NCBI GenBank assembly: GCA_026016245.1
Contig: CP061211.1
Coordinates: forward strand, 30,001-62,000
Length of the DNA stretch: 32,000 nucleotides
Direction: 5' to 3'
Origin: Candidatus Pacearchaeota archaeon
GTDB taxonomy: Archaea > Nanobdellota > Nanobdellia > Pacearchaeales > UBA284
Shown: one piece after another, positions 2 to 28,545 of the stretch
Layout of the letters: every line of letters begins with the position of its first letter
How positions within the stretch are numbered: the first letter of the stretch is position 1
The notes under the pieces: model-generated
Told to the model about the DNA's origin: nothing
The model's database searches: none
The model's input: only the letters and a program-made list of their open reading frames with translations
Made by a program: the position numbers and the translations under genes

Positions 2-1681
2 ACCCAACAAGCAGATTATATTTCAAATGATACTAGCGTTGCTTCTGTTTCAGCACTCGGCTTAGTTACTGGAATTGGAGATGGGACAGGAAAAATAACT
101 GCAGAATACACACATTCTGAGGTCACAAAAGAAGACTCTAGTATTGTTAATGTCAGATATTTTGAAGATGATTATATTAGATATATTAATCTGGCTTTAA
201 ATAAATATGAAATTGAAATAAATGAAGAAACAAGTTATGAAGTTAAGGCTTATTGGTCTAATGGTCTGACAACTGATATAACTTCTGAATCAGATGTTCA
301 GAGTTTAAATCCAAATGTTGCTTCTGTAAATCAAAATACTCATAGAGTTAAGGGAGAGGATGAAGGAATAGCCATCATAAATGCTAGCTATATTCATAAT
401 AATCTTCCTTATGGAGATGAAAAATTTATAATTGTTACTGGAGAAGCAGTTGGAGAATATAATCTTTCAGTTGACACATGTGGAGATACATCTATTCCAC
501 CAGATGGAGATTGTGAAGATTTTATTAATGTGAAAGGTGAAATAACTGTTAATCAAGAATCTTGGGGCATTGCACCACAAGAAAGATTCCCACTTCCTTC
601 AGATAATTATAGAGTTTCTTTTGGTCCTCTTCAGGATTGGTATGAACCTGGGGAGATGTCAGTATTTTTGCCTCCAAATGTTTCTTTGATGGGTATTTAT
701 ACTAAAGAGCCTGTGGAGTATGCTCTAATAATTGTCCAAGCTAAAGATGAACAGACAGGACAATTTATCAATGCTTTAATTAACTTATATCTTGAAGATG
801 ATCTTGTTAATTCTACTATAAATGATGTGAGATATAATTATTCAGAGACATATCCTATTGAATTCACAGCTGAATTTGAAGACCAAAGTGGTTACATTAC
901 ACCATCTAATTTAACAATAACAATTTATGGAAATGGAATTTATTTCTTTACAGTTTATTATGAAAAAGAAGCAGTTGGAGAATGTTTCTGTGAACCAAAG
1001 CATGTTCCTTGTGGTTTTTGTTATGATTTTTATTCTGAATGTGATGGCCCTCCACAAGGACCTGGACAAATAATTCCTTGTTCACCTGGTTGGATATGTA
1101 ATTATGTGACAGGAAAATGTCAACCAACTTCAACCCAAGATGAGTGTCATGATAATGCTACTACTTGTAATATTATCACTGGTTGTTATTGGGATTATCC
1201 AGACATCCCTCCTCCTTATTGTAAACATTGCCAAACAGAAGGTCCTGAAACATGTTCAGGTTATGATAATCAGGGAACTTGTAATTTAGATCCTTGTGTT
1301 GTCAAGAATGTTGGTTGTCCTTCTGGTGCTAGTGACTGTAGATGTGAATGGGAAACTGATGAATGTATTCTTAAATATCAACAACAAACAAATGGAGATT
1401 TTTGTGAGATAACTTTAAGACAGGGGACTTGTGAAGAAGGTTGCCAAGGAAAAATAAATTATAGATGGCAAAATTATACTTGTGATCCTGGTTCATGTTC
1501 AGAACAAGCTTGCGTGGATTTAACCTATCCTCCCCCAGATTATACAAAATCAGAATGTGTGATTTGTCCGACACCTTTTAGAGAGCTTCCATTTTTTTCA
1601 TGGTGGAATATTTTAGCTGTTGTGTCTGTATTGATAGTGTTTTATATATTCATGCTTAGAAAAAAGAGAATTAATTATTAA
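2..1681 (+). CDS. Surface protein, 5'-truncated by the window edge: two Big_2-type Ig-like domains, a beta-rich spacer, a cysteine-rich stalk and a C-terminal TM anchor
   Basis: Frame 2 is open from base 2, so the ORF-track GTG at 530 is not the true start. Translation of 2-529 gives SNDTSVASVSALGLVTGIGDGTGKITAEY and SLNPNVASVNQNTHRVKGEDEGIAIINASY, the Big_2 signature. From CFCEPKHVPCGFC to SECVICP I count 28 Cys. The C-terminus WWNILAVVSVLIVFYIFMLRKKR is a TM helix plus basic stop-transfer. Confidence 0.8.
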   Translation, partial: TQQADYISNDTSVASVSALGLVTGIGDGTGKITAEYTHSEVTKEDSSIVNVRYFEDDYIRYINLALNKYEIEINEETSYEVKAYWSNGLTTDITSESDVQSLNPNVASVNQNTHRVKGEDEGIAIINASYIHNNLPYGDEKFIIVTGEAVGEYNLSVDTCGDTSIPPDGDCEDFINVKGEITVNQESWGIAPQERFPLPSDNYRVSFGPLQDWYEPGEMSVFLPPNVSLMGIYTKEPVEYALIIVQAKDEQTGQFINALINLYLEDDLVNSTINDVRYNYSETYPIEFTAEFEDQSGYITPSNLTITIYGNGIYFFTVYYEKEAVGECFCEPKHVPCGFCYDFYSECDGPPQGPGQIIPCSPGWICNYVTGKCQPTSTQDECHDNATTCNIITGCYWDYPDIPPPYCKHCQTEGPETCSGYDNQGTCNLDPCVVKNVGCPSGASDCRCEWETDECILKYQQQTNGDFCEITLRQGTCEEGCQGKINYRWQNYTCDPGSCSEQACVDLTYPPPDYTKSECVICPTPFRELPFFSWWNILAVVSVLIVFYIFMLRKKRINY

Positions 1682-1711
1682 ATTATTTTTTCCTGGTAAA
1701 AAAGAGGTGAA

Positions 1712-4390
1712 ATGATAAAAAAAGAAGGAGTGATTTTAGTATTAGTATTTTTTATTTTATGTTGTTCTTTTAGTTCTGCTTCTGTTATTCCTGGAAATCC
1801 TTTTTTTAATTTAAGTCAAGGAAGTTTTGGTCCAGGCCAAGTTCTTGAGGGTTATTTTAACTTTTCTTTGGAAAATGAACCTGGTAATATTATGGTTAGC
1901 GGGCAAGTTGCTGCTGAGATGAAAGAGATGAATCTTCTTGATTTTTTACAAGAAGGAGAAGTAGATTTTAATTGTGATCCTAGTGATTGTGATGTTACTT
2001 ACCAGGCATCGATTCCTTCCCAAACAAAGACAGTAGTTCTTAGTGAAGAAGAGAAGTATTTTGGTTTAGTTGCTTTTGGTACTAATCCCCAGATTTTGAA
2101 CTTAAGTTTTTATCTTACTGGACAAAGCACTGCTAATCCTATTTGTGGTGAATCTCCTTTGAAAATTGATTTGCTTGATGATGGCATTATAGATTATGAA
2201 TATAAAGAGCCAAGTGGAGAATGGTGTTCTGATTTAAGACATAGTAGATGTTATGATCCTTCTATTGCTACTGGTGTTTCTGTTTTAACTTCTACTCCTC
2301 TTTGCCAGAAAATTTCTCTGAATAAGACAGGAAGGTTAGAAGTTGCTGCTGAACTTAAAGTGTATAGTGGTGAACCTTGGGATTATGATATAGAATTTAC
2401 TGTTTATGATTTAGGTGGTAGTTTAATTGGAAACTGCAGTGTTGATTATTTTTATGAATTAGAATATAGTTTTGCAAAATGTTTTATAGGTCCTGAATTT
2501 CTAGGAGAGGAATCAACATTCTTTATTGAAGAAGCAGGTGATTATCTTCTTTGTATCAGGAATAAGGGAACAAGTAGTGCAGAATATTGGATTAAAAAAG
2601 AAACTCAAGAAGAGGTTTGTGGTTTTTATGGAGAGCCGCCTTCACAGACTTATAATGAGGATTATTCTATTTATGTTCATGAAGCTAAATTTAATGCTTT
2701 TACTGAGGAAGTTGTTTTTGATGAGAGCATGCATCTTGGTGATGTTCCTTTAATGACTTATGTCCAGAATTATATTAATTCAGAATATGGAGGTAATTGT
2801 ACTGGATTTAGTGGTTGTATTATTCCTATAAAATTTATTTCATCAGCTAGCCAGACTTTGACATTGAGTGATATCAACTTCAAATATCACCCACAAGGCA
2901 CTTCTCCAACTTATAATAATTATTTTTATGATTTGATTGTTGAGTGGCCTAAAATTGATATGGATATACAGACAGTTCCATTCTCTATTCTTAATCTTAG
3001 TGCGCCTGAACAGCCAGGTTTCCAGATGGTTTTAGCTAAGATTGGAATAGCTTCGAGAAGTCTTGGTTTTGATGTTGCAGAAGTCCCAACAATCCAAAGT
3101 GTTAGTCCTCTTATTGTAATTCCAGGAAAGCTAACAGAATTTAGGACTGTTGCTACTGCTCCAGCTGGCAAACAGATTATTCAATATAGATGGGATTTTG
3201 GTGATGGTTCAGGAGAGCAAATGACAGCTGGGCCTAATATAACACATACATACAGCCAGATAAAAACATATATTTTAACTGTCAAGGCTCAAGATACTTC
3301 TGGTTTGGTTGGTTCAAGAACTTTTACTATTACCAGCAATATAACCCGCGAACTTTTGAATACTACAATACAGAATTTAAGAATAAGATTGGATAATTTT
3401 GCTTCTCAGTACAATAATATTGAATATTGGTACAGAGATATGATTGGAGTGAATGTTACAATAATAAGCACAACCCTTGATGTTTTAGAATCTCAATTAG
3501 CTACAGCAACCCAAACACAGCTTCTTGATATTAAAAATGAACTTGATGCTTTGAATGTTCCAATATCTATAAATGATACTTTGGTTTTGAGAGATTCTCC
3601 TTATATTCCAAATTTAAATGAAATAGATCCAAGTTATGTTAGTGATATGACAGGAGAGGATTATGATTCAAATCTCAAAACAGAATATCAGAATGCTGTG
3701 GCTTTATGGCAGCAGGATAATGTTAATTTGAGATTAGGAGGAGAGGCAAAAGCTTTATTTTATGAAGATAGAATAGAAGATAAGATTACAGTTGTTAATA
3801 TAAAAGTTGATCCTCTTGTTGGTATTTCTAATGCTTATGTTATTTTCTCCTTGCCTTATGGTGTTAGTTACAATGATGTCAGATTACTGCATGATGCATA
3901 TGAAGTAAGTGATTTAAATGATGCTATTGGCTTTGTCTATACTGGCTTAAGTGGCTTGGAAACAATTAGTATAACATTGCCAGGCAAGGTTGATTTTTCA
4001 GATATTAATTTTTATATCTCACCTTCTCTTCAGGAAGTACAAGTAGGAGTACAACCTCTGACAGAGCCACCAAAGAAACCACCCTATCTTCTAGCAATAT
4101 TTTTAATAATTGTTATTGCGATAGTTGTCCTTATTATCTTATGGTTTATATGGAAAGGCTCTGGGAAAAGAGAGAAAAAGAAGCTGTTCAAGAATCCTAT
4201 GGATCTTTATCATATTACTAATTTTATTTCTAACAATCAAGCTGCTGGAGTTCCAAAAAACAAGATAATAGAGAGGCTGAAAAAAGCTGGTTGGTCAAAA
4301 AAACAAATAGATCATGCTTTTAAACAAATTGGAAAACAGAAACCAATTTTTACACCTTCAGTGAAAAGAAGACCCACAAGAAGAATTTAA
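1712..4390 (+). CDS. Secreted, membrane-anchored PKD-domain surface protein with many N-glycosylation sequons and a 78-aa basic cytoplasmic tail
   Basis: GAGGTG at 1704-1709 precedes ATG 1712. Sec-type signal MIKKEGVILVLVFFILCCSFSSASV. PKD signature IQYRWDFGDGSGEQMTAGPNITHTYSQIKTYILTVKAQDTSG. At least 12 N-x-S/T sequons by my count. TM YLLAIFLIIVIAIVVLIILWFIW, then a K/R-rich tail containing GVPKNKIIERLKKAGWSKKQIDHAFKQI. Confidence 0.85.
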   Translation: MIKKEGVILVLVFFILCCSFSSASVIPGNPFFNLSQGSFGPGQVLEGYFNFSLENEPGNIMVSGQVAAEMKEMNLLDFLQEGEVDFNCDPSDCDVTYQASIPSQTKTVVLSEEEKYFGLVAFGTNPQILNLSFYLTGQSTANPICGESPLKIDLLDDGIIDYEYKEPSGEWCSDLRHSRCYDPSIATGVSVLTSTPLCQKISLNKTGRLEVAAELKVYSGEPWDYDIEFTVYDLGGSLIGNCSVDYFYELEYSFAKCFIGPEFLGEESTFFIEEAGDYLLCIRNKGTSSAEYWIKKETQEEVCGFYGEPPSQTYNEDYSIYVHEAKFNAFTEEVVFDESMHLGDVPLMTYVQNYINSEYGGNCTGFSGCIIPIKFISSASQTLTLSDINFKYHPQGTSPTYNNYFYDLIVEWPKIDMDIQTVPFSILNLSAPEQPGFQMVLAKIGIASRSLGFDVAEVPTIQSVSPLIVIPGKLTEFRTVATAPAGKQIIQYRWDFGDGSGEQMTAGPNITHTYSQIKTYILTVKAQDTSGLVGSRTFTITSNITRELLNTTIQNLRIRLDNFASQYNNIEYWYRDMIGVNVTIISTTLDVLESQLATATQTQLLDIKNELDALNVPISINDTLVLRDSPYIPNLNEIDPSYVSDMTGEDYDSNLKTEYQNAVALWQQDNVNLRLGGEAKALFYEDRIEDKITVVNIKVDPLVGISNAYVIFSLPYGVSYNDVRLLHDAYEVSDLNDAIGFVYTGLSGLETISITLPGKVDFSDINFYISPSLQEVQVGVQPLTEPPKKPPYLLAIFLIIVIAIVVLIILWFIWKGSGKREKKKLFKNPMDLYHITNFISNNQAAGVPKNKIIERLKKAGWSKKQIDHAFKQIGKQKPIFTPSVKRRPTRRI
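3107..3337 (+). other. PKD domain-coding segment inside the 1712-4390 CDS
   Basis: PLIVIPGKLTEFRTVATAPAGKQIIQYRWDFGDGSGEQMTAGPNITHTYSQIKTYILTVKAQDTSGLVGSRTFTITS carries the canonical WDFGDG...H.Y...G.Y.V.L.V.D pattern. Confidence 0.8.
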
Positions 4391-4395
4391 TTTTA

Positions 4396-6660
4396 TTAAG
4401 AAGGTTTAGGAGCTGGAGGCAAAGGTTTTGGTTTTCTTACTGGTTTTATTGGCATTGGTTTTGGCTTTATAGGTCTGGCTATTGGTTTTGCAGGCATTCT
4501 TACTGGCCTTGCTGGAGCTCTTCCTGGTGGCATTCTTCTTACAGGCCTAGATGGCATCATTCCAGGAAACTCCAATTTGGGTTTGGCTGGTTTTGCTTTC
4601 TTCCTTTTTTTAATGGATAGGAATATTAAAACACCTAATCCTAAGACTAAGAAAATGATGAGAGTTGTTAGCCATGGGAACACACTTGGTTTTTTACATT
4701 TCCCTAAACAACATCTGCTTGTATCAGAAGCTTCAACAATTGTTCCGTCACAAGCAAGGCTAGCATTACAGGCAGTTCCTCCTAAAGACGAACATGAACT
4801 TAAACAGCTTCCATCAACACAACATCTCGTAGCCTCACTTGTCTCATACATTGTTCCAGAACAAATCTGTCCAGCTTCACAAGAAACACCAGGACAGGTT
4901 TTTGGAATACATTTCCCTCCTTGGATACAACAAGTTTGTTGGCCACCAGTATTAGCAGCCTCCACTAAAGTTCCGTCTTTACAATCCTCGTCACTAGCAC
5001 AAATCTCACCACCCATTACAGCGCAGGTTTGAGAACCTGTACAAAAACCTGATTCACAGCAATAATTTGTATCAGAAGCAACAATCCATCTGTCTGAAGG
5101 ACATGATTTTCCTTGACTAGGATCACAAATCTCTCCTCCAAGATCAAAACAAGTATCACTTGCTGTTGTGCAAACCCCTTTACAACAATAAGGAGTGTCA
5201 GCTGATACAATGAATGGAATTATATTACCAAGATTATCCAAACATTTCTGTCCAGAGCCGCAAATCTGGCCACCTATCTCATTAATACACATTGATTTAT
5301 CATAAGGTTTACAACATTTCAATCCTGGCTCACAGATATAAGGAACTTCAGTTTCATTGTCAGAACAAGAACTTTTACAAGAACCATATTTATCTTCACA
5401 TGACTGGGCAATATCACAACATTCACGATCTCCAAAACAAGCATAAGGTTGAGATATGCCACCACTATTACTGCAATTGATAACACAACTATATCCATAT
5501 TGCTCACATTCAGAAAGTAATTCTAGAGTCGGCCAAACTCCAAGAAGAATTAAAGCTGTATCACGAACATTATCGCAAGCTGATCCAGAACATTCCCAGC
5601 TTCCATCTTGTTTTTGTTCTTCTAATAATGTTTCTTTTGTCTTTTCAATATCTCCTGCCATGGCTTGGGTCATTAATACAACAAGAGCAGTATCATAATA
5701 TTTGTTAGAAGAACCTTGTCCAAGCCATAATCCATCAGCTCTTTGTAATGCTATTAGTTCTGAAATAAAACTTTGTTTTTTTGTTATTTCATAAAGGAAA
5801 GGTTGAGGCATATATTGCAGATTTTCATCATAATTTATTACAAGGTAAGGCATAAATGTTTTTGCTGTATTTATTTTTCCTTGCTTCATGAATGCATAAG
5901 CTGTCCATAAACTTGCTTCATAATCACATGATCCAAGAGTTGTGATACAAGAAGAATTCAAACCTATAGAAAGAAGTCCCTGAGGGCCAGCTTCTTCATA
6001 CAAGCCAGGAACATACCAATCATTTTCTTTCTTGAATAAAAAATTAGCTATAACACTTTCATTACAACTGACATTGAAAATTTTATCAGAACATTCTGGA
6101 CTAAGACTTAACCAATAATTTTCAGCTATTGTAAAACAAGATCCTGGATTGCCTCCTAATTTGTCTTCTTTATCAATACTAATTTCATAATCAGTATTAT
6201 CATAGAACAAAAGACAGCGGGCAGGAACATTGTTGGTTGTTAATTGCAAATACCAATCAATTCCAGTAGGCATGGCTGTCTTGTTTAATAGCCATTCATT
6301 TGCTTTTTCTGTGTCTTCTCCTATTGCATCAAGGGCAAGTTTTGCAAGAGCTGTATCTTTTGTTTTACAGTTTGGAGAAGGCCAGCATGTCTCATTTTCA
6401 AAGCTCTTGTCAATCAACTTTATTTTTGATGCTTTGGTTTGTGCAAGACTCATTTCATCTCGTAAAACAAGTAATGAGAAAACATGTTGTTCTATATTGA
6501 GATTTTGCCATCTTCCAATAGCTTTATTTTTTAACCAGAGATAAGCTCTTTTAATTTGTATTTTTTCTTGTTCTTGCTGAGCAGAGATTAAAAAAGAGCA
6601 TAAAAAAAGTATTAGAATAAATACTATAAATAATAGAGCAAAGCCTCTTTTCTTATTCAT
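4396..6660 (-). CDS. Surface protein: signal peptide, prenyltransferase/terpene-cyclase-like a/a-toroid repeat domain, seven tandem six-cysteine modules, TM anchor, Pro/Lys/Arg-rich cytoplasmic tail
   Basis: N-terminus MNKKRGFALLFIVFILILFLCSFLISAQQ. Two Q-x-x-DG-x-W repeats (LQRADGLWL, EQKQDGSWE) and repeated [KYR]DTAL helices (KDTALAKLAL, YDTALVVLM, RDTALILLG) typical of prenyltransferase/squalene-cyclase repeats. 42 Cys in aa 385-655 arranged as 7 modules, each with a CC doublet. TM WLTTLIIFLVLGLGVLIFLSI. Tail KPAKPKLEFPGMMPSRPVRRMPPGRAPARPVRMPAKPIARPIKPKPMPIKPVRKPKPLPPAPKPS. Confidence 0.85.
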   Translation of the reverse strand: MNKKRGFALLFIVFILILFLCSFLISAQQEQEKIQIKRAYLWLKNKAIGRWQNLNIEQHVFSLLVLRDEMSLAQTKASKIKLIDKSFENETCWPSPNCKTKDTALAKLALDAIGEDTEKANEWLLNKTAMPTGIDWYLQLTTNNVPARCLLFYDNTDYEISIDKEDKLGGNPGSCFTIAENYWLSLSPECSDKIFNVSCNESVIANFLFKKENDWYVPGLYEEAGPQGLLSIGLNSSCITTLGSCDYEASLWTAYAFMKQGKINTAKTFMPYLVINYDENLQYMPQPFLYEITKKQSFISELIALQRADGLWLGQGSSNKYYDTALVVLMTQAMAGDIEKTKETLLEEQKQDGSWECSGSACDNVRDTALILLGVWPTLELLSECEQYGYSCVINCSNSGGISQPYACFGDRECCDIAQSCEDKYGSCKSSCSDNETEVPYICEPGLKCCKPYDKSMCINEIGGQICGSGQKCLDNLGNIIPFIVSADTPYCCKGVCTTASDTCFDLGGEICDPSQGKSCPSDRWIVASDTNYCCESGFCTGSQTCAVMGGEICASDEDCKDGTLVEAANTGGQQTCCIQGGKCIPKTCPGVSCEAGQICSGTMYETSEATRCCVDGSCLSSCSSLGGTACNASLACDGTIVEASDTSRCCLGKCKKPSVFPWLTTLIIFLVLGLGVLIFLSIKKRKKAKPAKPKLEFPGMMPSRPVRRMPPGRAPARPVRMPAKPIARPIKPKPMPIKPVRKPKPLPPAPKPS
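4696..5508 (-). repeat. Seven tandem protein-level six-Cys modules (about 35-45 aa each) with an invariant CC doublet
   Basis: Examples: CFDLGGEICDPSQGKSCPSDRWIVASDTNYCCESGFCTGSQT, CAVMGGEICASDEDCKDGTLVEAANTGGQQTCCIQGGKCIPKT, CSSLGGTACNASLACDGTIVEASDTSRCCLGKCKKPS. Recurrent GG-x-I/A-C and [AS]-[DN]-T-x(1-5)-CC-x(3-5)-C. Confidence 0.85.
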
Positions 6661-6673
6661 AGTTCTCTAAGCA

Positions 6674-6700
6674 TTTTAATATTTAAAAAACTTTTTAAAT
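6674..6700. promoter_or_regulatory. Back-to-back A/T (TATA-like) boxes in a 45-bp divergent intergenic region
   Basis: TTTTAATATTTAAAAAACTTTTTAAAT. The complement of 6680-6687 reads TTTAAATA about 26 nt from the minus-strand ATG (6660). Plus-strand boxes sit about 26 nt before ATG 6706 and ATG 6721. No SD on either side, so leaderless transcripts are inferred. Confidence 0.4.
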
Positions 6701-6705
6701 GTCAG

Positions 6706-7500
6706 ATGATACTAAGAAATATGGATAGAGATAAAAGAGGACAGGTAACTCTTTTTATTATAATTGCTATTGTTATTGTGGCTGTTGTGATTCTAGCTAT
6801 TGTTCTTGTCCCACAACTTCTTCCTAGAGAAAGAATTCCCCCAACAGTACTTGATCCAGAAGCTTATATTGCTGATTGCGTTAACTTACATTTAGAACCA
6901 TTAGTTGAGGTACTTGCAAGTCAAGGAGGCTATTTGGAAACAGGAAATTGTATTTTTTATGAAGATATCTGCAGGCATTATTTATGTTATACTACTACTC
7001 CTTATATTAATTGCACTAATCAAGAACCTTTACTTAAAGAGCATGTTGAAGAAGAATTAAAAACTAAGCTGCAACAAGAAAATGTGGTTAAAAATTGTAT
7101 TTCTAGTTTTGCTGAAGCTGCAAGAAAACAGAATTGGAATGTTGAAGCATGCTCTGTTCCAAAATTTTCAGTTAATTTGACAGAAGGCAGGATTAATATC
7201 CCTATAGAGTGTGATATAACAATGTCTAAAGGACAGGAAGTTAAAAAATTTGAAGAACTTAATCCTTTTTTAAAATGGCCTTTGTTTGAATTTGTTATAC
7301 TTAGTAAAGAAATTATTAATGAAGAAATAGAAAATTGTGATTTTGATCCCTTAGCTTATATGACTATGCATTATCAGATTGAGATTGAGAAATTTAGAAC
7401 AGGCGATGGAAGTAAGATTTATATACTTCGGGAAAGAGAAACTGGAAAAGAATTTGTATTTGCTGTAAGAAATTGTGTGTTACCAGGAGGGGTATTTTAG
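6706..7500 (+). CDS. Cysteine-rich extracytoplasmic protein with a class III (type IV pilin-like) signal peptide
   Basis: N-terminus M(ILRNM)DRDKRGQVTLFIIIAIVIVAVVILAIVL is a short charged segment, then R-G-Q directly abutting the hydrophobic stretch, as in archaeal prepilin-peptidase substrates. 10 Cys in the mature part. Start could be ATG 6706 or ATG 6721; each has an A/T box about 26 nt upstream. Confidence 0.7.
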   Translation: MILRNMDRDKRGQVTLFIIIAIVIVAVVILAIVLVPQLLPRERIPPTVLDPEAYIADCVNLHLEPLVEVLASQGGYLETGNCIFYEDICRHYLCYTTTPYINCTNQEPLLKEHVEEELKTKLQQENVVKNCISSFAEAARKQNWNVEACSVPKFSVNLTEGRINIPIECDITMSKGQEVKKFEELNPFLKWPLFEFVILSKEIINEEIENCDFDPLAYMTMHYQIEIEKFRTGDGSKIYILRERETGKEFVFAVRNCVLPGGVF

Positions 7501-7501
7501 A

Positions 7502-10500
7502 ATGCCAAACAGGAAAAACAAAGGTGATATGGCAATAGCATTATTCCTTTCATTTTTGGCAGTAATGATGCCAGTGACCTTTACATCATTACAACCAGAA
7601 TTTACAGAAGAAGGAATAAAACAAAATTCTATCATTGAAACTTTCTCAGAAATAGTCTTATTTTTTGATCTAATTCCAAGTGTAGCTGCTTCTGATTATT
7701 TTGGATGCTGTGAAGAAACAAAAAATAAAGCTAAATGTGTTATAACTCTTGAGAATGAATGTAAGGTTAATAAATGGCATAATGGAACAGCTTGTGATAC
7801 TGTATGCCAGATAGGTTGTTGTATAGATAATGAAGGAATGTGTATTAAAAATTCTATAAATACAGATTGTCAACTTGGAACTTTTATTGTTAAGGATCCA
7901 AGTTGTGAACAGAGTCCTTTATGCAAGGAAGGTTGTTGTACAATTGGTTATCAAAAAAGATGGACAACAAATTTAACTTGTGTTAATGTTTATAATGGTG
8001 TTTGGGATAGTGCTGTTCCTGATTGGTTGACTTGTATTAAACAAGCTTATGAAGAACAGCATGGATGTTGTAAAAGTTATGCTGGTTGTGAGTATATTAC
8101 AGGACAAGAATGCCAGGGCAAATCAGGATATTTTTTCTCAAATATGAAGTGCTATGAGAATATTCCTGGCTGCGAGATTTGTCAATTACAGCCTACTGAA
8201 GGAAAATGTATAGAAGGTTTTCCTGATTTATACAAGACAGATAGTTGTGGGAATGTTTATAGTGATGAAATTAAAAAATATTGTACTGGTGGTTTTTGTA
8301 ATCCTGAGACAAATCAATGTGAATCTGGAGATTGTTTTAATATCTACAAAAATTATGTTGGTGGAGAATTTGGGCCTAAAGAATCTTCAGACAAAGCAAA
8401 AAGTGGTGAGGCTTGGTGTGTTTATGATACTCTTAGTGACTTAGGTAATGGAACAGCACCTGTAGGTTCACGACACTGGAGACGTTATTGTTTATATGGG
8501 CAAGAATATAATGAGCCTTGTGCAGATTACAGACAAGAAGTTTGTATGGGTTTTGGAGAAGGAGGGCAAGCAGAATATGCCAACTGTGCTCCAAATGGAT
8601 GGAGACTATGTGCTAATGTTACATCAAAAAATGAATGTAATGAGAATCCTTTCTGTTTCTGGTGGACAGATTTTGGTGAACAACATGAAGACCTAGGTCT
8701 TGGTAGCGGATTGAAAGATGCAATTGATAAAGTAGGTAATGATAAATGGCGTATTTTTGCTGAAGAAAAAATAGAATCTGGAAAAAGTAAAAGAGAGAAA
8801 GGAGACCCACAAATTTGTTTACCTAAAATACCTCCAGGCTATAGTGAACTTAATCAAGAGCTTGGTTGTGTTGGAGCTGGAAGTTCTATGTGTGTTTATG
8901 AAGAAGCTTGGTGGGGTTTAGATACAGAAAATAAAGAATGTCGTGATGATGAATGGCGTATTACATCTGCACACACATGTAGAAGTGTAGGAGATTGTGG
9001 AACTTGGTTTAATTGGGTTGGAGAGCCTATGTCTGGTTTTAGGATCATAGAAGTTGAAGAAGGAGATGTAGAAAGAGAGAAAAAAGAAATAATGATACCA
9101 CAAGCATATACTGATTTTGTTTCAGAACATATTAAAGGAGTAAAGGGAGCTGGTGGCTTAGGCCTCTTGAATATTTTTGCAGCTGCTTTTGTAGTTTGGG
9201 CTGGAGGTTATTTAGGAGTTGCAGTTTTAGATCTAGTTGGTGTAGACGTTTTTTTCAGTGGTGTACCTTGGGCAATGTTTAGTGTCAGTAAAGGATCATT
9301 AACTACAGCAGGTATAGTGGTTGGATGGTCTATTATAGCTACTGGAGTGATCTTAATTTTATGGTCTTTTTGGATTTCACCAGGAGCAAAACAAGGAGCA
9401 ATGCAATCAATTGGTGCTGGCCTTATTTCAGGAGGTGCTGCTGCTTTAGCAGGATTAACTGCTGTTCCTGCTGTACTTGTTGGCATTGTAATTGCTGGAA
9501 TTGCTGCTCTTTTATACTGGTTAGGTTATAGTAAGGAATTTTATTATCAACAATGTAATCCTTCAATGCCTCCTCTTAATGGAAATGACTGTCATCTTTG
9601 TAATGAAGATTCTGAAAGGCCTTGTTCTAAGTATAGATGTGAGAGTCTAGGAGCTGCCTGTTCATATAATGATACTATAACTGTTGGTGGTAAAACATAC
9701 CAGCTTGCAGATTCTGAATGTATAGCAACAATAAATGATGGTGCTCCTCCTTGGATTACTGAAATAGAGGCTTTTGACATGGAAGGAAGGAGTATCTTCA
9801 AAAGAACAGGATTAGGAACAATGCCTACAACCATCAATATTAATATGGGCGGCCAACCTATTCCTGATGGCACGCAACTTGTAATACAAATAAACTTGAA
9901 TGAAAAAGCATTTTGTATGTGGGATATTGAAAGCACAGCCAACATTGGAGAGATGGACTTCCCTTATCAAAGTTCTGTATTGCGGGATGAGCTAAGACAG
10001 CAATTCCTAGTGAAACAGGCTCTGCCACAATATTATGTAAGATGTGCTGATGTTTATGGCAATGCGAACATTGCAGAATACATTTTCAAATTTTCAACTA
10101 CAACAGGACCAGATTTAACACCACCAGTTATTTTAGGTACAGATAGAGATTATAATCCTTATTTTGGATATAGTGTTACTGAGCTTCCTTTATCTATTTA
10201 TATTAGTGAAGATGCTTTTTGTCGTTGGAACCCAGGACAGGACACTGATTATGAATTAATGTCACAAGAAACAGAATGTGAAACAGATATCACACCGACT
10301 GGATGGGAATGTGAAACAACCCTCACTGGCTTGCAGCCAGATATTGCAAATCCTTTCTATATAAGATGTAAAGACAAAAGTCCTCAAGAAAATGTTATGC
10401 CTAGCGGTTACCTTCTTACATTACTTCCTACACCGCCTTTATTAATCACTTCAATTGATCCAACAGATGGTTCTATAATTAAAGGATGCGAAGTTTCTGG

Positions 10501-11005
10501 TGTAGAACTTGAAGTTACAACTGCTGAAGGAGCAGATAATGGAATAGCTACTTGTTATTGGTCTAATGCTGATATTGGCATTGAACAAGGAATGACTAAA
10601 TTTACTGAAACTAATACTGTTATTCATAGACAGAACCTTTCTGCTATGAGCCAGATTGTTTACATCAAATGTCATGATTCTGCTTTAAATATAGCAAATA
10701 ATAGGACAAGCTTTACTGTAATTGTTGATACTTTCCCACCAAAAATAACTCGTCTTTACAAATCTGGTGGAAGTCTTATTTTAAAGACAGATGAGAATGC
10801 TGTTTGTGCATATCACTATAGTGCTGGCAGAAAAATACATAATTGTAATTTTGATCCTAAGGATACTCTCAGAGCAAGAAGGTTTGATACCACAGGAACT
10901 AAAGAACATAGAGTTTATGATGATGGAGAGCCTTGGCATGTAATATGTTATGATGAGTGTGATAATATTGGACAGTGTTTCGTAATATCTTCAATAGAAT
11001 CTTAA
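7502..11005 (+). CDS. Giant (1167 aa) polytopic surface protein: N-terminal anchor/signal, >40-Cys ectodomain with GCC modules, Gly/Ala-rich 4-helix membrane bundle, C-terminal ectodomain with four tandem Ig-like modules
   Basis: ATG 7502 lies 1 nt after the upstream stop, with GGAGGGG at 7487-7493 (preferred over the ORF-track GTG 7475). N-terminus MPNRKNKGDMAIALFLSFLAVMMPV. Modules FGCCEETKNKAKC, IGCCIDNEGMC, EGCCTIGYQ, HGCCKSYAGC. Hydrophobic block LGLLNIFAAAFVVWAGGYLGVAVL / AGIVVGWSIIATGVILILWSFWI / AMQSIGAGLISGGAAALAGLTAV / PAVLVGIVIAGIAALLYWLGY at nt ~9150-9530. Four C-terminal repeats follow. Confidence 0.85.
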   Translation: MPNRKNKGDMAIALFLSFLAVMMPVTFTSLQPEFTEEGIKQNSIIETFSEIVLFFDLIPSVAASDYFGCCEETKNKAKCVITLENECKVNKWHNGTACDTVCQIGCCIDNEGMCIKNSINTDCQLGTFIVKDPSCEQSPLCKEGCCTIGYQKRWTTNLTCVNVYNGVWDSAVPDWLTCIKQAYEEQHGCCKSYAGCEYITGQECQGKSGYFFSNMKCYENIPGCEICQLQPTEGKCIEGFPDLYKTDSCGNVYSDEIKKYCTGGFCNPETNQCESGDCFNIYKNYVGGEFGPKESSDKAKSGEAWCVYDTLSDLGNGTAPVGSRHWRRYCLYGQEYNEPCADYRQEVCMGFGEGGQAEYANCAPNGWRLCANVTSKNECNENPFCFWWTDFGEQHEDLGLGSGLKDAIDKVGNDKWRIFAEEKIESGKSKREKGDPQICLPKIPPGYSELNQELGCVGAGSSMCVYEEAWWGLDTENKECRDDEWRITSAHTCRSVGDCGTWFNWVGEPMSGFRIIEVEEGDVEREKKEIMIPQAYTDFVSEHIKGVKGAGGLGLLNIFAAAFVVWAGGYLGVAVLDLVGVDVFFSGVPWAMFSVSKGSLTTAGIVVGWSIIATGVILILWSFWISPGAKQGAMQSIGAGLISGGAAALAGLTAVPAVLVGIVIAGIAALLYWLGYSKEFYYQQCNPSMPPLNGNDCHLCNEDSERPCSKYRCESLGAACSYNDTITVGGKTYQLADSECIATINDGAPPWITEIEAFDMEGRSIFKRTGLGTMPTTININMGGQPIPDGTQLVIQINLNEKAFCMWDIESTANIGEMDFPYQSSVLRDELRQQFLVKQALPQYYVRCADVYGNANIAEYIFKFSTTTGPDLTPPVILGTDRDYNPYFGYSVTELPLSIYISEDAFCRWNPGQDTDYELMSQETECETDITPTGWECETTLTGLQPDIANPFYIRCKDKSPQENVMPSGYLLTLLPTPPLLITSIDPTDGSIIKGCEVSGVELEVTTAEGADNGIATCYWSNADIGIEQGMTKFTETNTVIHRQNLSAMSQIVYIKCHDSALNIANNRTSFTVIVDTFPPKITRLYKSGGSLILKTDENAVCAYHYSAGRKIHNCNFDPKDTLRARRFDTTGTKEHRVYDDGEPWHVICYDECDNIGQCFVISSIES
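9737..11002 (+). repeat. Four tandem ~92-125-aa beta-sandwich-like modules in the C-terminal ectodomain of the giant protein
   Basis: Each module opens with x-PP-x-I (APPWITEIE, LTPPVILGT, PTPPLLITS, TFPPKITRL). Each carries a paired-Cys signature C-x-[WY] ... [YH]-[VI]-x-C-x-D: AFCMWD...YVRCADVYGN; AFCRWN...YIRCKDKS; ATCYWS...YIKCHDSA; AVCAYH...HVICYDECDN. Confidence 0.75.
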
Positions 11006-12552: not shown

Positions 12553-12969
12553 ATGGCAAAGAAAAAAATAAAAACAAGGAGAAGCGATAAAGGGATAACA
12601 ATACAATTCATCCCATATTCAGAAATAGCTTATCTCACTAGCTTTAGACGTGTGAAGAAGTTAGTTGATTTAGCTGTCGAGAACAAGATTTTGCTTGTTC
12701 AGGGAAAGCTTGCTCCTGAAGAGGAAGTTGACTTGATTGAGGAAACAATGAAACATATAGTTAAGAGTAAAAAATCAAAGTTTAGAGGAATTGAGTTAGC
12801 TACATTCTCACCGAGATCAAAAGAATTACCTTTTTTTACTTCAATGAAAGAGAAACTTGCAACAAGTTTATTTGGTGATAGAGATGTTATCACAGTTATT
12901 GGTCCTGCTACAATTGTCCGTGAAATTAAAAAAGATCCCACTAAGATACAACTCCTTTTAAGGAAATAA
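12553..12969 (+). CDS. DUF2073-family archaeal protein (OapB-like)
   Basis: ITIQFIPYSEIAYL...ILLVQGKLAPEEEVDLIEETMKHI...FRGIELATF matches my memory of the DUF2073 core (l.peEE..LIe.TM....F.GIE). It lies 10 nt after the GTPase stop. Confidence 0.7.
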   Translation: MAKKKIKTRRSDKGITIQFIPYSEIAYLTSFRRVKKLVDLAVENKILLVQGKLAPEEEVDLIEETMKHIVKSKKSKFRGIELATFSPRSKELPFFTSMKEKLATSLFGDRDVITVIGPATIVREIKKDPTKIQLLLRK

Positions 12970-12987
12970 TAAAAATAATAATTAAAA

Positions 12988-13419
12988 ATGCCTCATCAAT
13001 GTGTTCGCTGCGGAAGAATCTATGATAGTGCTGCTCCTGAAGTTCTAGAAGGCTGTTCTTGCGGTTCTCATTACTTTTTCTTCTTTAAGGATGAAGACTT
13101 GGCTATGCAAAAGGAAACTGAAAAGCTTACTAGAGATGAAAGAGAAGAGATTGTCAAGGATGTTAGTGAAATAGTCGGGCCAGATATAGAGAAGCCAATA
13201 ATCCTTGATTTAGAAAGTATCAGAGTACAGAAACCAGGAAAGTTTGAGATTGATTTGGTTAGAATCTTCAAGAGAAAACCTATTATATACAAGATAGAGG
13301 AAGGAAAGTATATCATAGATCTTGCATCAACTTTCCAGATGAAATTAAAGGAGAAAAAGATTGAAAAGTTAAAAAAGGTTGAAGTTCCAGAACCTAAAGA
13401 ATCTAAAGAAGAGGATTAA
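12988..13419 (+). CDS. DUF2072-family Zn-ribbon protein (OapC-like)
   Basis: MPHQCVRCGRIYDSAAPEVLEGCSCGSHYFFFF is the characteristic MPHxCxxCG...GC.CG..F N-terminal zinc ribbon. It has a K/E-rich C-terminus. Confidence 0.75.
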   Translation: MPHQCVRCGRIYDSAAPEVLEGCSCGSHYFFFFKDEDLAMQKETEKLTRDEREEIVKDVSEIVGPDIEKPIILDLESIRVQKPGKFEIDLVRIFKRKPIIYKIEEGKYIIDLASTFQMKLKEKKIEKLKKVEVPEPKESKEED

Positions 13420-27483: not shown

Positions 27484-28545
27484 ATGTTATCCATAATATT
27501 ACCAACAAAAAATGAAGCAACAAATATTAGGAATCTTTTTAATAGAATTTCTAGAATAAAGAAAAAGATTGGAGATTTTGAGATAATCCTTGTTGATAGT
27601 GATAGCAAGGATAACACTATCAAAGTAGCTAAAAATTTTAGTAGAGTTTATAAATTAAAAGTTCAAGTTTTTAATTCTGGTAAGAAGGATTTGAGTAATT
27701 CAGTTCTTGTTGGTTTAAAAAAAGCTAAAGGCAGTATTGTTTGTATAATGGATTCTGATTTGCAGCATCCTCCAGAGATGATCCCTTTAATGATAAAGAC
27801 CTTGAATAGAGAGAATGCTGATATCATAATTGCTTCAAGATTTGTTAAAGGTTCTAAACTTAGATTTGGACCCTGGAGAATCTTTGTTTCAAAGGTTTAT
27901 TGTTTACTTGCACATTTATTTATTCCTAAATCTTTGTATATCAAGGATCCTGCAACTGGCTTCTTTGTTTTCAGAAAAAAAATTCTGAAGAAAGCAAGAT
28001 TAAGGCCTCTGGGTTTCAAAATTCTTCTAGAGATTCTGGCAAGAGCAAAATATGATAAAGTTATTGAGGTTCCTTTTTCATTTAAAGAAAGGAGAGAGGG
28101 AAAGAGCAAATTTAATTTCAAGCAGACTTTTATGGCTTTCAGGCATTTGCTTAGACTTGCCAAAAGTGGAAGAGAACATTATCGTTTCTTGAAATTCTGT
28201 GCTGTTGGAGCTAGTGGAATTGTAGTGAATGAAGGCCTGCTTTGGCTTTTGACAGAGTTCGCTGGCCTATTTTATCTTATATCTGGGGCTATTGCTATTG
28301 AATCTTCTATCTTATCTAATTTTATTTTGAATGATTTATGGACTTTTAGAAAAGAGAGAAAAGGAAAATACTTGAAAAGGCTCTTGAGGTTTAATGTAGC
28401 TAGAATTTTTGCATTGGGTATTAATTTTTCAGTCTTATTGGCTCTAACTTCTTTAGGTGTGCACTATCTTATCTCTAATCTTTTTGGTATTGTTCTGGCT
28501 ACCATGTTTACCTATCTCAGCAGTTTATGGTGGGTTTGGAAATGA
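27484..28545 (+). CDS. GT2 polyprenol-phosphate glycosyltransferase (Dpm1/ArnC-like) fused to a C-terminal GtrA-like membrane domain
   Basis: LSIILPTKNEATNI, ILVDSDSKDNT and IMDSDLQHPPEMIPLM (DxD region) are GT2 dolichol/undecaprenol-phosphate sugar synthase motifs. C-terminal RFLKFCAVGASGIVVNEGLLWLLTE plus three further TM segments form a GtrA-like domain. Confidence 0.85.
   Translation: MLSIILPTKNEATNIRNLFNRISRIKKKIGDFEIILVDSDSKDNTIKVAKNFSRVYKLKVQVFNSGKKDLSNSVLVGLKKAKGSIVCIMDSDLQHPPEMIPLMIKTLNRENADIIIASRFVKGSKLRFGPWRIFVSKVYCLLAHLFIPKSLYIKDPATGFFVFRKKILKKARLRPLGFKILLEILARAKYDKVIEVPFSFKERREGKSKFNFKQTFMAFRHLLRLAKSGREHYRFLKFCAVGASGIVVNEGLLWLLTEFAGLFYLISGAIAIESSILSNFILNDLWTFRKERKGKYLKRLLRFNVARIFALGINFSVLLALTSLGVHYLISNLFGIVLATMFTYLSSLWWVWK

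Follow-up and report, generated by a model that had tools for sequence, protein, structure and literature searches.

An alpha/alpha-toroid head on a predicted cystine-module stalk in an unannotated protein family of Pacearchaeota and Woesearchaeota

The closest described systems are alpha/alpha toroids of the terpenoid-cyclase, prenyltransferase and thioester-domain (TED) superfamily. Class II terpene cyclases are cytoplasmic or monotopic enzymes with a DxDD acid, and in their repeat unit a Qx(2-5)GxW loop joins an outer helix to an inner helix capped by DTA. The cavity of squalene-hopene cyclase is located between its two toroids. Prenyltransferase beta subunits have a 12-helix barrel and a zinc site (Asp, Cys and His ligands), and they are larger than the toroid described here. 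The TEDs of complement and alpha-2-macroglobulin (A2M), such as C3d, C4d and bacterial A2M TED, are extracellular, carry a CGEQ thioester motif and are set within MG and CUB domains; complement proteins have their toroid inserted into a beta domain. Transcobalamin and intrinsic factor are also extracellular, and transcobalamin has an alpha6/alpha6 barrel with a C-terminal beta domain. Finally, many glycosidases are built on (alpha/alpha)6 barrels and have their active site at the mouth where the N-termini of the inner helices meet.

Few uncultivated DPANN archaea are as widespread as Pacearchaeota and Woesearchaeota. To our knowledge, hardly anything is known about their cell surfaces, their means of attachment to partners or the routes by which lipids and other building blocks reach them. 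The first-pass annotation of the window (the whole 32,000-nucleotide stretch of DNA analysed here) assumed a small symbiotic-type archaeon that depends on others for lipids. Both assumptions are supported: archaeal marker genes are found in the window, the nearest relatives of the protein are labelled Pacearchaeota, Woesearchaeota or Nanoarchaeota, and DPANN archaea have been reported to take up lipids from their hosts, with a call from the authors for mechanistic work (PMC11035636).

The gene layout points to a surface protein with a folded head, a cysteine-rich stalk and one membrane anchor. The single 754-aa ORF (Table 1) is predicted to encode a type-I membrane-anchored protein, a divergent member of an unannotated Pace- and Woesearchaeal family. 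From the N-terminus it has a signal peptide, an ectodomain (aa 28-380), the stalk, one transmembrane (TM) helix and a tail rich in Pro, Lys and Arg; the span originally flagged, 5521-6570, corresponds to aa 31-380. Export and tethering by a stalk of Cys modules had been proposed, and the hydropathy and composition of the protein agree with this. Residues 1-30 are hydrophobic (KD 3.29), Ala27 at the predicted signal-peptide cleavage site is invariant across the aligned homologues, and a second hydrophobic window at aa 657-686 (KD 2.73) has a basic cluster on its C-terminal side. These features support export of the N-terminus, with the C-terminal TM helix as the probable anchor and the tail predicted to be cytoplasmic. 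The last 60 aa contain 20 prolines. Most homologues end in a helix of the form ELxxxLKKLKEMxK, which the tail alignment shows to be missing from the window protein.

Table 1. Features of the toroid gene and its divergent neighbours (positions in the window; slashes mark the break within signal sequences)
Feature	Position	Strand	Basis
Whole gene	4396..6660	-	ORF listing and homologues
Sec-type signal peptide, aa 1-27 (MNKKRGFALLFIVFILILFLCSFLISA / QQE)	6580..6660	-	hydropathy, invariant Ala27
Toroid N-half, aa 28-135, helices 1-5	6256..6579	-	AF2 DSSP, hhalign, Cys co-variation
Inserted beta-sandwich, aa 136-244	5929..6255	-	AF2 strands, C175/C190 co-variation
Toroid C-half, aa 245-380	5521..5928	-	AF2 helices, squalene-hopene cyclase matches, conservation
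Cystine-module stalk, aa 381-656, 42 Cys	4693..5520	-	Cys count and regex modules
Single TM helix (about aa 661-683), then KKRKK stop-transfer	4603..4692	-	hydropathy
Cytoplasmic Pro/Lys/Arg-rich tail and stop codon	4396..4602	-	composition, tail alignment
264-aa protein, class III (type IV pilin-like) signal DKRG/QVTLFIIIA	6706..7500	+	divergent to toroid gene
1176-aa Cys-rich (65 Cys) polytopic membrane protein	7475..11005	+	start overlaps end of 264-aa gene

The family is large, widely conserved and unannotated, and its fold belongs to a known superfamily. The window protein has 22 homologues with E values from 6e-57 to 8e-14, and at E<=1e-30 there are 636 representative clusters. Members are present in 373 species genomes, nearly all of them labelled Pace-, Woese- or Nanoarchaeota. 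None of the members found carries a precomputed Pfam domain, and the few source names all read "hypothetical protein". A profile search of 5.8 billion proteins added unnamed or "hypothetical" Pacearchaeota proteins and one squalene-hopene cyclase (E=2e-7), and a search started from the head of P0022, on a distant branch, turned up a single additional relative and did not reach any annotated family. No description of the family was found in the literature, and a survey of archaeal dark matter does not mention toroid or prenyltransferase families. The window protein has the signal peptide, toroid with beta insert, signature motif, Cys stalk, TM helix and basic, Pro-rich tail of the family, and it departs from the others in missing the C42/C354 pair and the tail helix.

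Six helical hairpins make up the head, an alpha/alpha toroid of the terpenoid-cyclase, prenyltransferase and TED superfamily. The first-pass annotation had assigned it to this fold from [KYR]DTAL helices and two QW motifs, and all of these are found in the translation: KDTAL at 6346-6360, YDTAL at 5683-5697, RDTAL at 5551-5565, QRADGLW at 5725-5745 and QKQDGSW at 5596-5616. KDTALAKLAL is an inner helix of the N-terminal half, which also has the C92-C98 loop with the sequence CWPSPNC. The C-terminal half contains, in order, the signature C-D-Y-E-x-S-L-W (CDYEASLW in the window protein, C[DN]YExSLW in the family), PYL, two Qx(2-5)GxW loops and the inner helices YYDTAL and RDTAL. Searched alone, the window protein matches squalene-hopene cyclase in the PDB (E=6e-6) and the Pfam models SQHop_cyclase_C (E=5e-5, 22.9 bits, slightly below the cut-off of 26.1) and SQHop_cyclase_N (E=7.6e-4); the Pfam and PDB matches to squalene-hopene cyclase fall on aa 299-365. 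A profile of 23 family sequences matches squalene-hopene cyclase 2sqc at E=1e-13 over six repeats, and the squalene-hopene cyclase-type chains 8pak and 8paj, which have about 360 aa, at 1e-8 to 4e-6. The repeat is also visible within the family, where hhalign matches the N-half to the C-half (probability 96.8%, E=2.4e-10) and individual hairpins to one another (E=1e-7 to 1e-10).

Structure prediction bears out the toroid assignment. The AF2 model (pLDDT 91.2, pTM 0.88) has about 12 helices, at model residues 2-98 in the N-half and 220-348 in the C-half, together with a beta insert. Foldseek ranks prenyltransferase beta subunits (RabGGTase, GGTase-III) first in the PDB, with a probability of about 1.0 and TM of 0.46-0.52 (chains 6j7x_B, 3hxf_B and 1dce_B, TMq 0.46-0.48, TMt 0.50-0.52), which is the best global superposition of the 12-helix barrel. 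Class II terpene cyclases (8pak, MstE, drimenyl-PP synthases), the C4 TED and transcobalamin follow. The C4 TED match (probability 0.92, TMq 0.41, family HMM E=0.036) agrees with the original statement that complement and A2M TEDs belong to the same fold class, while the transcobalamin match is weak (7qbe_C, probability 0.60, TMq 0.36). Among viral models in BFVD there is no analogue of the head (best probability <=0.66, TM<0.2). Across 170 members, Y247, E248, W252, Y272, Y322, D323, T324, G353 and W355 are each at least 95% conserved. The DTA residues and the Trp of QxxxGxW, which make up the bulk of the conserved residues, are repeat scaffold and are uninformative on function.

The toroid is interrupted by an all-beta insertion of about 110 aa. 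It lies at aa 136-244, where it separates the outer helix of hairpin 3 (helix 5) from the inner one (helix 6), and was absent from the first-pass account, as were the size of the family and its synteny with the pilin-like and 1176-aa genes. In the full model it has 12 strands with pLDDT mostly of 94-97, falling to 84-87 at model residues 181-200, and when modelled by itself it has a pLDDT of 90.4. It contains the conserved cysteines 149, 175, 190, 199 and 238. It has no significant Foldseek neighbour in the PDB (all E>0.07, TM<0.45) and is assigned to no fold family. The best non-significant neighbour is a lipase PLAT-like domain (probability 0.89, TMq 0.37), and the others are generic sandwiches (MmpS5, C2, Ig-V, LecB).

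The pattern of cysteine loss suggests that the head is held by about five disulfides. In the 170 members the cysteines of the pairs 42/354, 92/98, 175/190 and 238/245 are lost jointly. Both C92 and C98 are missing in 13 members with one discordant case; only 1 of the 170 members lacks C238 or C245, and it lacks both (none discordant), a weak result that is consistent with a pair. Eight of the ten conserved head cysteines therefore fall into four co-varying pairs, and C149 and C199 are paired by elimination. Joint loss fits an extracellular, oxidised domain, and because the protein also has a signal peptide and a type-I anchor, the domain is placed outside the cell. The C42-C354 pair would link helix 1 to the last QW loop and so close the ring; the window protein has W42 and S354 at these positions.

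Sequence comparison indicates a constant head on a stalk of variable length. Column identity is 37% in the head and 31% over the whole protein. In the window protein the stalk has 42 cysteines in 282 aa, arranged as two defensin-like six-Cys modules followed by about five modules of the form C..GG..C...C....ASDT..CC..C. Regex modules are found at aa 504-540, 546-584 and 623-655, and Defensin_beta_2 gives a sub-threshold Pfam match at aa 420-450. Homologues have fewer or more modules, and long members add only DUF7107, DPY or Ig stalk modules.

The gene neighbourhood suggests a link to other surface proteins. A homologue of the 264-aa pilin-like protein is upstream on the opposite strand at 42 of 84 toroid loci, and the 1176-aa protein has a homologue at 40 of the 84, at 38 of them upstream on the opposite strand. 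The linkage of the two genes holds for both types of synteny and for the clade of the window itself (L005, L007). The N-terminal motif of the 264-aa protein is kept in the homologous ORFs inspected; the protein has a weak PilA match (E=0.46) and nothing significant in the PDB. The 1176-aa protein has TM-like segments at 16-40 and about 556-686 and no match in Pfam or the PDB. An Ig-like type-I partner with a matching membrane-proximal Cys module is encoded in the same direction at 57-68 of the 84 loci and is missing beside the window gene. The toroid gene region is also syntenic with the housekeeping genes for PCNA, primase and Hjc. Since this is a generally conserved gene order, the co-location with the pilin-like and 1176-aa genes could be inherited and need not reflect functional coupling.

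The favoured reading, to which we give a probability of about one half, is that the head is a binding module without catalytic activity, carried on a stalk whose length varies, and belongs to a conserved envelope or contact apparatus of DPANN cells. The cystine modules would hold the constant head away from the membrane. The putative binding site is at the meeting point of the inner-helix N-termini, as judged from the insertion point and the usual ligand mode of the superfamily, and the insertion point would also place the beta-sandwich on this face, beside the Y247-E248 signature. The apparatus may include the pilin-like protein and the giant Cys-rich membrane protein, and in most relatives also the adjacent Ig-like type-I protein, which carries the membrane-proximal Cys module too. 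The head is conserved and the gene is nearly universal and located among housekeeping genes, so the ligand is more likely to be generic (a lipid or glycan) or a partner in the cell's own envelope than a host-specific protein. The window protein itself may have diverged in function, since three features of the main clade are missing from it: the partner gene, the disulfide that closes the ring, and the tail helix. The position of E248 and D323 at helix N-termini would also be expected of a six-hairpin hydrolase. The family is nearly ubiquitous in these lineages, conserved and modelled with high confidence, and it is therefore a concrete target for expression. Its superfamily is best known for isoprenoid binding, and the family head has lost all of the known chemistry and gained a beta-sandwich.

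It is possible but unlikely that the head captures or docks onto isoprenoid lipids, as the first-pass annotation had speculated. The toroid with its beta-sandwich cap would then bind host polyprenyl or archaeol-type chains for a lipid-auxotrophic DPANN cell, in line with the reported uptake of host lipids (PMC11035636). Isoprenoid chains are bound by every one of its nearest relatives in sequence and structure (squalene-hopene cyclase, monodomain class II cyclases and prenyltransferase beta subunits), the best neighbours of the insertion, although non-significant, are lipid- or membrane-associated (PLAT-like, MmpS5, C2), and a head that is conserved and not hypervariable fits a generic ligand. 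However, TEDs and transcobalamin bind non-lipids with this fold, and the insertion's Foldseek matches are weak (TM<0.4, E>0.07). The toroid proper is also small (about 250 aa, with helices of 10-13 residues in the AF2 model), and the conserved Trp residues are in the QW scaffold motifs, with no obvious aromatic lining. The more specific proposal, a surface receptor that extracts or docks onto host archaeol, GDGT or polyprenyl-phosphate while the pilin-like and Cys-rich proteins complete a machinery for lipid acquisition and contact, is quite unlikely. If correct, this proposal would provide the first molecular handle on membrane acquisition by lipid-auxotrophic DPANN archaea, and a lipid ligand of any kind would make the question of DPANN lipid supply directly testable.

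The head might instead be a structural element of the envelope, with heads that tile or bridge into an S-layer-like stalked canopy and bind no small molecule, although this too appears unlikely. The near universality of the family in its lineage, the housekeeping neighbourhood, the head borne on a stalk of variable length, the cytoplasmic tail helix conserved in the main clade and the adjacent type-I partner with a matching membrane-proximal module would all suit such a role. On the other hand, the family-specific polar residues Y247-E248 suggest a defined site, and we know of no S-layer protein with this toroid fold. Even as a structural or adhesive head, a toroid carried by a stalk of cystine modules and linked to a pilin-like gene pair would be an envelope architecture of a new kind.

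It is improbable that the head is an extracellular six-hairpin enzyme, such as a glycoside hydrolase or a lyase that attacks envelope glycans of the host or of the cell itself. The candidate catalytic residues E248 and D323 are each 95% conserved and adjoin Y247 and Y322, and the protein is predicted to be at the cell surface. However, D323 lies in the DTA N-cap, a structural element of the repeat, and the sequence similarity is specific to the terpene-cyclase QW repeat. No glycoside-hydrolase family appears in the Pfam, NCBIfam or PDB searches or in the top 50 Foldseek matches.

A transcobalamin-like scavenger of a corrinoid or similar cofactor, with the ligand between the toroid and the beta domain, is very unlikely. 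Transcobalamin is also an extracellular barrel with a beta domain and is among the Foldseek matches, but its TMq is low, there is no sequence similarity, and in the family the beta domain is inserted within the barrel.

Cyclase, prenyltransferase and thioester chemistry are all unlikely because DxDD, the zinc site and CGEQ are missing across the family. The original remark that neither DxDD nor CGEQ is present holds for the window protein, and CGEQ is found in none of the 170 members; the string DxDD does occur in 13 of the 170, at whatever position, and is not conserved in the profile. Covalent capture by a thioester, which the first-pass annotation had considered, is accordingly extremely unlikely, and so is its variant as a split A2M whose MG-like domains would be encoded by the neighbouring gene. 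The C4 TED is among the sequence and fold matches, but C.EQ is found in only 8 of the 170 members, the protein itself has no MG or CUB architecture, and in contrast to complement it has its beta domain inserted into the toroid. The cysteine of CDYE (Cys i, Glu i+3) was considered as a degenerate thioester and rejected, since C238 and C245 disappear jointly, as disulfide partners would. A split A2M was rejected at the family level: a neighbour at the distant locus L085 has a sub-threshold MG2 match (E=2.2e-5, 25.2 bits, cut-off 32.8), but no other of the 64 partner proteins does, and in the PDB a profile of the partners finds nothing beyond CsuC/PapD-like and designed Ig folds.

An enzymatically active class II terpene cyclase or protein prenyltransferase that was wrongly taken to be extracellular, as the best sequence and fold matches might suggest, can be dismissed as hardly credible, since the family head is a single small toroid broken by a beta-sandwich and not a beta-gamma didomain, it is predicted to be secreted, disulfide-bonded and stalk-anchored, and the conserved cysteines are assigned to pairs. 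In the fourth aligned domain of the profile match to squalene-hopene cyclase, only D323 of YYDTA aligns, with D377 of the cyclase, and a Tyr is at the acid position. No conserved Asp, His or Cys zinc ligands of a prenyltransferase site were found, no position in aa 1-400 has His as a consensus residue in at least 85% of the 170 members, and there is no alpha-subunit context. In the proposed check against Pfam, matches to SQHop_cyclase_C (22.9-24.6 bits, cut-off 26.1) and SQHop_cyclase_N (19.2-20.8 bits, cut-off 26.2) were obtained below the curated gathering cut-offs, as was the NCBIfam model TIGR01507 (22.1, cut-off 431). Prenyltrans (PF00432) has no match at E<=10 in the window protein or at E<=0.1 in 23 members, and the A2M thioester domain (PF07678) has no Pfam match in either set.

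Three ORFs on the plus strand inside the toroid gene (4577-5032, 5456-5698 and 6230-6544) were judged to be spurious, because their translations lack any gene-like feature and the minus-strand frame has hundreds of homologues.

The head of the 754-aa protein (ectodomain residues 28-380) has the toroid fold of the squalene-hopene cyclases and prenyltransferase beta subunits. This fold was proposed in the first-pass annotation, and the cyclase profile match, the internal repeats, and the agreement of AlphaFold2 and Foldseek show that the assignment was right. The fold superfamily itself is already known. With the single sequence, the Pfam families SQHop_cyclase_C and SQHop_cyclase_N scored 22.9 and 19.2 bits against gathering thresholds of 26.1 and 26.2, and solved squalene-hopene cyclases were matched with E=6e-6. 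When 23 trimmed ectodomains were combined into a profile (alignment A2), squalene-hopene cyclase was matched with E=1e-13, and one stretch of the profile aligned to six separate cyclase repeats. The same profile reached 8pak and 8paj, squalene-hopene cyclase-type chains of about 360 aa, as well as ent-CPP synthase and, weakly, the C4 TED. Repeats within the head were also found by hhalign with no database involved. The N-terminal half of the family matches the C-terminal half with a probability of 96.8% (E=2.4e-10), and single hairpins match one another with E=1e-7 to 1e-10. The repeat unit consists of an outer helix, a [Q]x(2-5)GxW loop, and an inner helix capped by DTA. All of the motifs quoted in the first-pass annotation are present in the translation where it had placed them, and on this sequence evidence they are not a chance pattern.

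The AlphaFold2 model built on A2 has a pLDDT of 91.2 and a pTM of 0.88. In model numbering, which is that of the full protein minus 27, five helices occupy 2-98, twelve strands 109-214, and a second helical block 220-348, so that the model has about twelve helices, which make up six hairpins, and an insertion that is all beta. The top Foldseek matches in the PDB are the prenyltransferase beta subunits of RabGGTase and GGTase-III (TMq 0.46-0.48, TMt 0.50-0.52, probability 1.0). They are followed by drimenyl-diphosphate synthases, 8pak_B (a squalene-hopene cyclase chain of about 350 residues), MstE, the C4 TED (TMq 0.41), and transcobalamin. The E-values are modest, about 0.02, and these and the capped query-normalised TM-scores are plausibly due to the insertion, which has no counterpart in the Foldseek targets.

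The insertion, which is absent from the first-pass annotation, is flanked by outer helix 5 and inner helix 6. In the model it is on the side of the barrel where the outer helices loop over to the inner ones and the inner helices have their N-termini. Modelled by itself it has a pLDDT of 90.4, and Foldseek found no significant neighbour for it in the PDB. The best non-significant ones are the pancreatic lipase beta-sandwich (probability 0.89, TMq 0.37), MmpS5, C2, and Ig-V domains, and the insert is treated here as an unclassified beta-sandwich.

The toroid protein is encoded by a single minus-strand ORF. The minus-strand frame has hundreds of homologues, while the overlapping plus-strand ORFs are short, with nothing gene-like in their translations. 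The window is archaeal DNA with a GC content of about 32%, and it includes archaeal genes for OapB/OapC, PAC2, TrmB, and archaeal-type aminoacyl-tRNA synthetases. The closest kin of the protein are in assemblies labelled Pacearchaeota, Woesearchaeota, or Nanoarchaeota, and the top relative is a fragment in a Pacearchaeota MAG with 60% identity.

Positions of genes in the window and of segments and motifs in the toroid protein (motifs from the translation)
Feature	Window position (strand)	Toroid protein residues
383-aa Cys-rich and 892-aa PKD-domain proteins	530-4390 (+)	
Toroid gene	4396-6660 (-)	1-754
Cytoplasmic tail	4396-4602 (-)	
Toroid span in the first-pass annotation	5521-6570 (-)	31-380
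First hydrophobic segment		1-30
KDTAL		101-105
Beta-sandwich insert		136-244
QRADGLW		306-312
YDTAL		322-326
QKQDGSW		349-355
RDTAL		366-370
Second hydrophobic segment		657-686
264-aa protein	6706-7500 (+)	
1176-aa protein	7475-11005 (+)	
OapB and OapC	12553-13419 (+)	
GT2 and PMT_2 genes	27484-29897 (+)	

The protein is an exported, disulfide-stabilised toroid head with an insert, carried on a cystine-module stalk with a one-TM anchor. It has only two hydrophobic segments. The first ends at an invariant Ala of the homologues; with Q/E/D/A as the next residue, this makes a site of the signal-peptidase type. After the second come KKRKK and a tail of 60 aa, 20 of them Pro and 16 Lys/Arg. Between head and anchor are 282 residues with 42 Cys in short modules, three of which fit the strict pattern C..GG..C...C....CC..C, while the rest are looser or defensin-like. 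The signal peptide, Cys stalk, and TM anchor therefore indicate a surface protein that has a type-I anchor and whose distal head is the toroid, and these features bear out the earlier proposal of export and tethering by a Cys-module stalk. Homologues have the same head with fewer or many more stalk modules and reach 1210 aa, and the extra length of the long ones consists only of DUF7107, DPY-like, or Ig-like stalk modules. The family pattern is thus a constant head whose stalk varies in length. The tails of most members (P0001-P0020 in the whole-protein alignment A1) end, after a Pro/Arg-rich stretch, in an amphipathic motif that is approximately E-L-[DE]-[DE]-[TV]-L-[KR]-K-L-K-[ED]-[MI]-[GS]-K, with only a loose likeness to MIT-interacting motifs. 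The window protein keeps the Pro-rich stretch and lacks the terminal helix motif.

Cysteine pairs that are lost together suggest that the head has five disulfides, which fits an exported domain. Among 170 aligned members, Cys 42/354 are jointly absent in 10 and discordant in 1, Cys 92/98 in 13 and 1, Cys 175/190 in 4 and 0, and Cys 238/245 in 1 and 0; the pairing of Cys 149/199 was assigned by elimination. In the window protein, W42 and S354 replace the first of these pairs, and the link between helix 1 and the last QW loop is thereby lost.

The lack of CGEQ, of a conserved DxDD, and of a Zn site makes cyclase, prenyltransferase, and thioester chemistry all very unlikely. CGEQ occurs in 0 of the 170 members. 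DxDD occurs in 13, at positions that were not checked, and is unconserved in the family profile, so the first-pass annotation's failure to see either motif holds for the family. Where the squalene-hopene cyclase repeat has the catalytic DxDDTA, the family has YYDTA, which keeps only the last Asp and has Tyr in the place of the proton donor. The 170 members have no conserved His and no conserved Cys left unpaired, indicating that a prenyltransferase-type Zn site is absent. The CDYE motif has a superficial thioester spacing (Cys at i, Glu at i+3), and it was rejected as a thioester since the one member that lacks its Cys lacks C238 as well. Glu is also unable to form the thioester. The thioester-type module suggested earlier is accordingly not borne out.

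The family is large and appears to be undescribed, as do its architecture (secreted toroid head with internal beta-sandwich, cystine-module stalk, and type-I anchor) and its gene neighbourhood. A word-indexed search found 22 relatives with E-values of 6e-57 to 8e-14, none of which has a precomputed Pfam domain. Their sole name is "hypothetical protein", and database names of family members in general go no further. Literature searches, including an archaeal dark-matter survey, found no description of the family. An exhaustive profile search of representatives gave 2334 matches at E<=1e-3, 926 at <=1e-10, and 636 at <=1e-30. A scan of one genome per species with the family signature C[DN]YEx[ST][LI]W[AS][TAS] gave 373 confirmed loci. 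The 80 that were retrieved come from 80 distinct assemblies, nearly all labelled Pacearchaeota, Woesearchaeota, or Nanoarchaeota; the exceptions are a few generic or Parvarchaeum labels and two short contigs labelled Patescibacteria. These two "Patescibacteria group bacterium" bins (L016 and L063) carry typical family members, and the match coordinates and identity of L016 equal those of a Woesearchaeota locus (L015). They are probably DPANN contigs mis-binned into CPR bins.

Conservation of the head is moderate but uniform. Mean column identity is 37% in the head and 31% in the whole protein, and there is no hypervariable region. In the 170-member alignment the conserved positions include scaffold residues (T103, W93, W123, W136, W312, W355, D323-T324, T368, Q306, Q349, and G353) and, as a second class, the cysteines. 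Family-specific residues are also conserved: Y247-E248-x-x-L-W252 at the start of inner helix 6, directly after the insert, and P271-Y272-L273, N280, P285, F288, and Y322.

The gene neighbourhood is strongly conserved over 84 homologous loci. In the main clade the order is the 1176-aa homologue (-), the 264-aa homologue (-), PCNA (-), a primase-like gene (+), the toroid gene (+), a 335-430-aa type-I protein (+), an MJ0538-family gene (-), and often then Hjc. Many loci end at contig ends, so the counts per 84 loci are lower bounds: 71 for the primase-like gene, 61 for PCNA, 57-68 for the downstream type-I partner, 62 for MJ0538, 42 for the 264-aa homologue, and 40 for the 1176-aa homologue; in about 40 loci the 264/1176 pair lies upstream of the toroid gene. 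Even the distant branch L085, with 23% identity, keeps the core order (primase-like, toroid, co-directional downstream gene, MJ0538, Hjc). This gene order is unusually stable over Pace- and Woesearchaeota (L001-L085), with an LTD or unannotated protein between MJ0538 and Hjc. The primase-like protein has 440-560 aa, a long insertion, and merely faint or weak DNA_primase_S matches. The partner (L001-L004, L008-L085) has a signal peptide, Ig/CARDB-like beta domains, and a TM anchor, and its gene is 1-230 bp from the toroid gene. It has a single copy of the toroid protein's membrane-proximal Cys module, C..LGG..C....C......CCLG.C, and the two proteins may form a complex.

The window falls within a small subclade (L005, L007, L006, and L011; 40-42% identity) in whose neighbourhoods PCNA, primase, and the downstream partner are missing; in the window MJ0538 is undetectable as well. 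The toroid gene is immediately back-to-back with the 264/1176 pair; its tail-to-tail neighbours are genes for a surface protein with PKD domain and for a Cys-rich protein of 383 aa. Since the subclade keeps the pair without PCNA, primase, or partner, the association survives a rearrangement, and no better hint of functional coupling is available. The 264-aa protein carries a signal peptide of class III (type IV pilin-like), DKRG/QVTLFIIIAIVIV. Those of its homologous ORFs that were inspected (25 of about 50 matches) share the motif [KR][GAS]Q[VIL][TS][IL]F[IV]I, and the PilA N-terminal match is weak (E=0.46). In the 1176-aa protein, which has 65 Cys, there are a hydrophobic segment at the N-terminus and a central TM-like cluster at about residues 556-686; the protein has no match in Pfam or the PDB, and the first 26 nt of its gene are shared with the end of the 264-aa gene. 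Two further surface proteins converge on the toroid gene. The 383-aa protein has 28 Cys and a C-terminal TM helix, and the 892-aa PKD-domain protein has a signal peptide, a TM helix, and a cytoplasmic tail that includes IIERLKKAGWSKKQIDHAFKQ. The stop codon of the 892-aa gene is 5 bp from that of the toroid gene. In L005 and L007 both surface proteins have homologues downstream of the toroid gene, and in L006 a match to the 892-aa protein is upstream of it. Window positions 530-11005 thus encode five Cys-rich surface or membrane proteins in a row.

The reading that we prefer, with a probability of about 0.5, is that of a non-catalytic binding head within a conserved envelope or contact apparatus. 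As read from the alignments, the head is without every catalytic or covalent motif of its relatives and is conserved throughout a major DPANN lineage. It would be a binding module, with a lipid, a glycan, or a protein partner as candidates. Its functional face would be the mouth where the N-termini of the inner helices converge, because this is the usual ligand site of the superfamily and the insert and the Y247-E248 signature are located there. Its partners in the apparatus may be the pilin-like protein and the giant Cys-rich protein. The uniform conservation of the head and its housekeeping-gene setting favour a generic ligand or self-partner over a host-specific protein. The family is potentially relevant to DPANN surface biology.

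A purely structural role for the head as a canopy element is unlikely. No more likely is the first-pass suggestion that it binds isoprenoid lipid for scavenging or docking, a striking claim that is still speculation. Isoprenoid chains are ligands of all the nearest relatives, the best neighbours of the insert, none of them significant, are as it happens sandwiches associated with lipids, and DPANN archaea take up host lipids by mechanisms on which further work has been urged (PMC11035636). However, the toroid proper is small, with helices of 10-13 residues, the conserved aromatics are QW scaffold residues, and this fold has non-lipid functions as well. A hydrolase or lyase of the six-hairpin type, for which the conserved E248 and D323 would speak, is more doubtful still, as glycosidase similarity was found nowhere. 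A transcobalamin-like cofactor binder is highly improbable, and a split A2M whose MG domains would be encoded by the neighbouring gene is barely credible, since the sub-threshold MG2 match in the partner of L085 is not borne out by the 64-member partner family.

Other features of the window were also observed. The origin-associated proteins OapB and OapC are encoded side by side, adjoined by a GTPase and PAC2, and a replication origin may be nearby. The cumulative GC skew runs upward to about 20 kb of the window and downward after that. Two surface glycosylation genes are also present: the first encodes a GT2 with a GtrA-like TM domain, similar to dolichol-phosphate-sugar synthases, and the next a PMT_2 family glycosyltransferase. 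There are 8 N-x-S/T sequons in the toroid protein.
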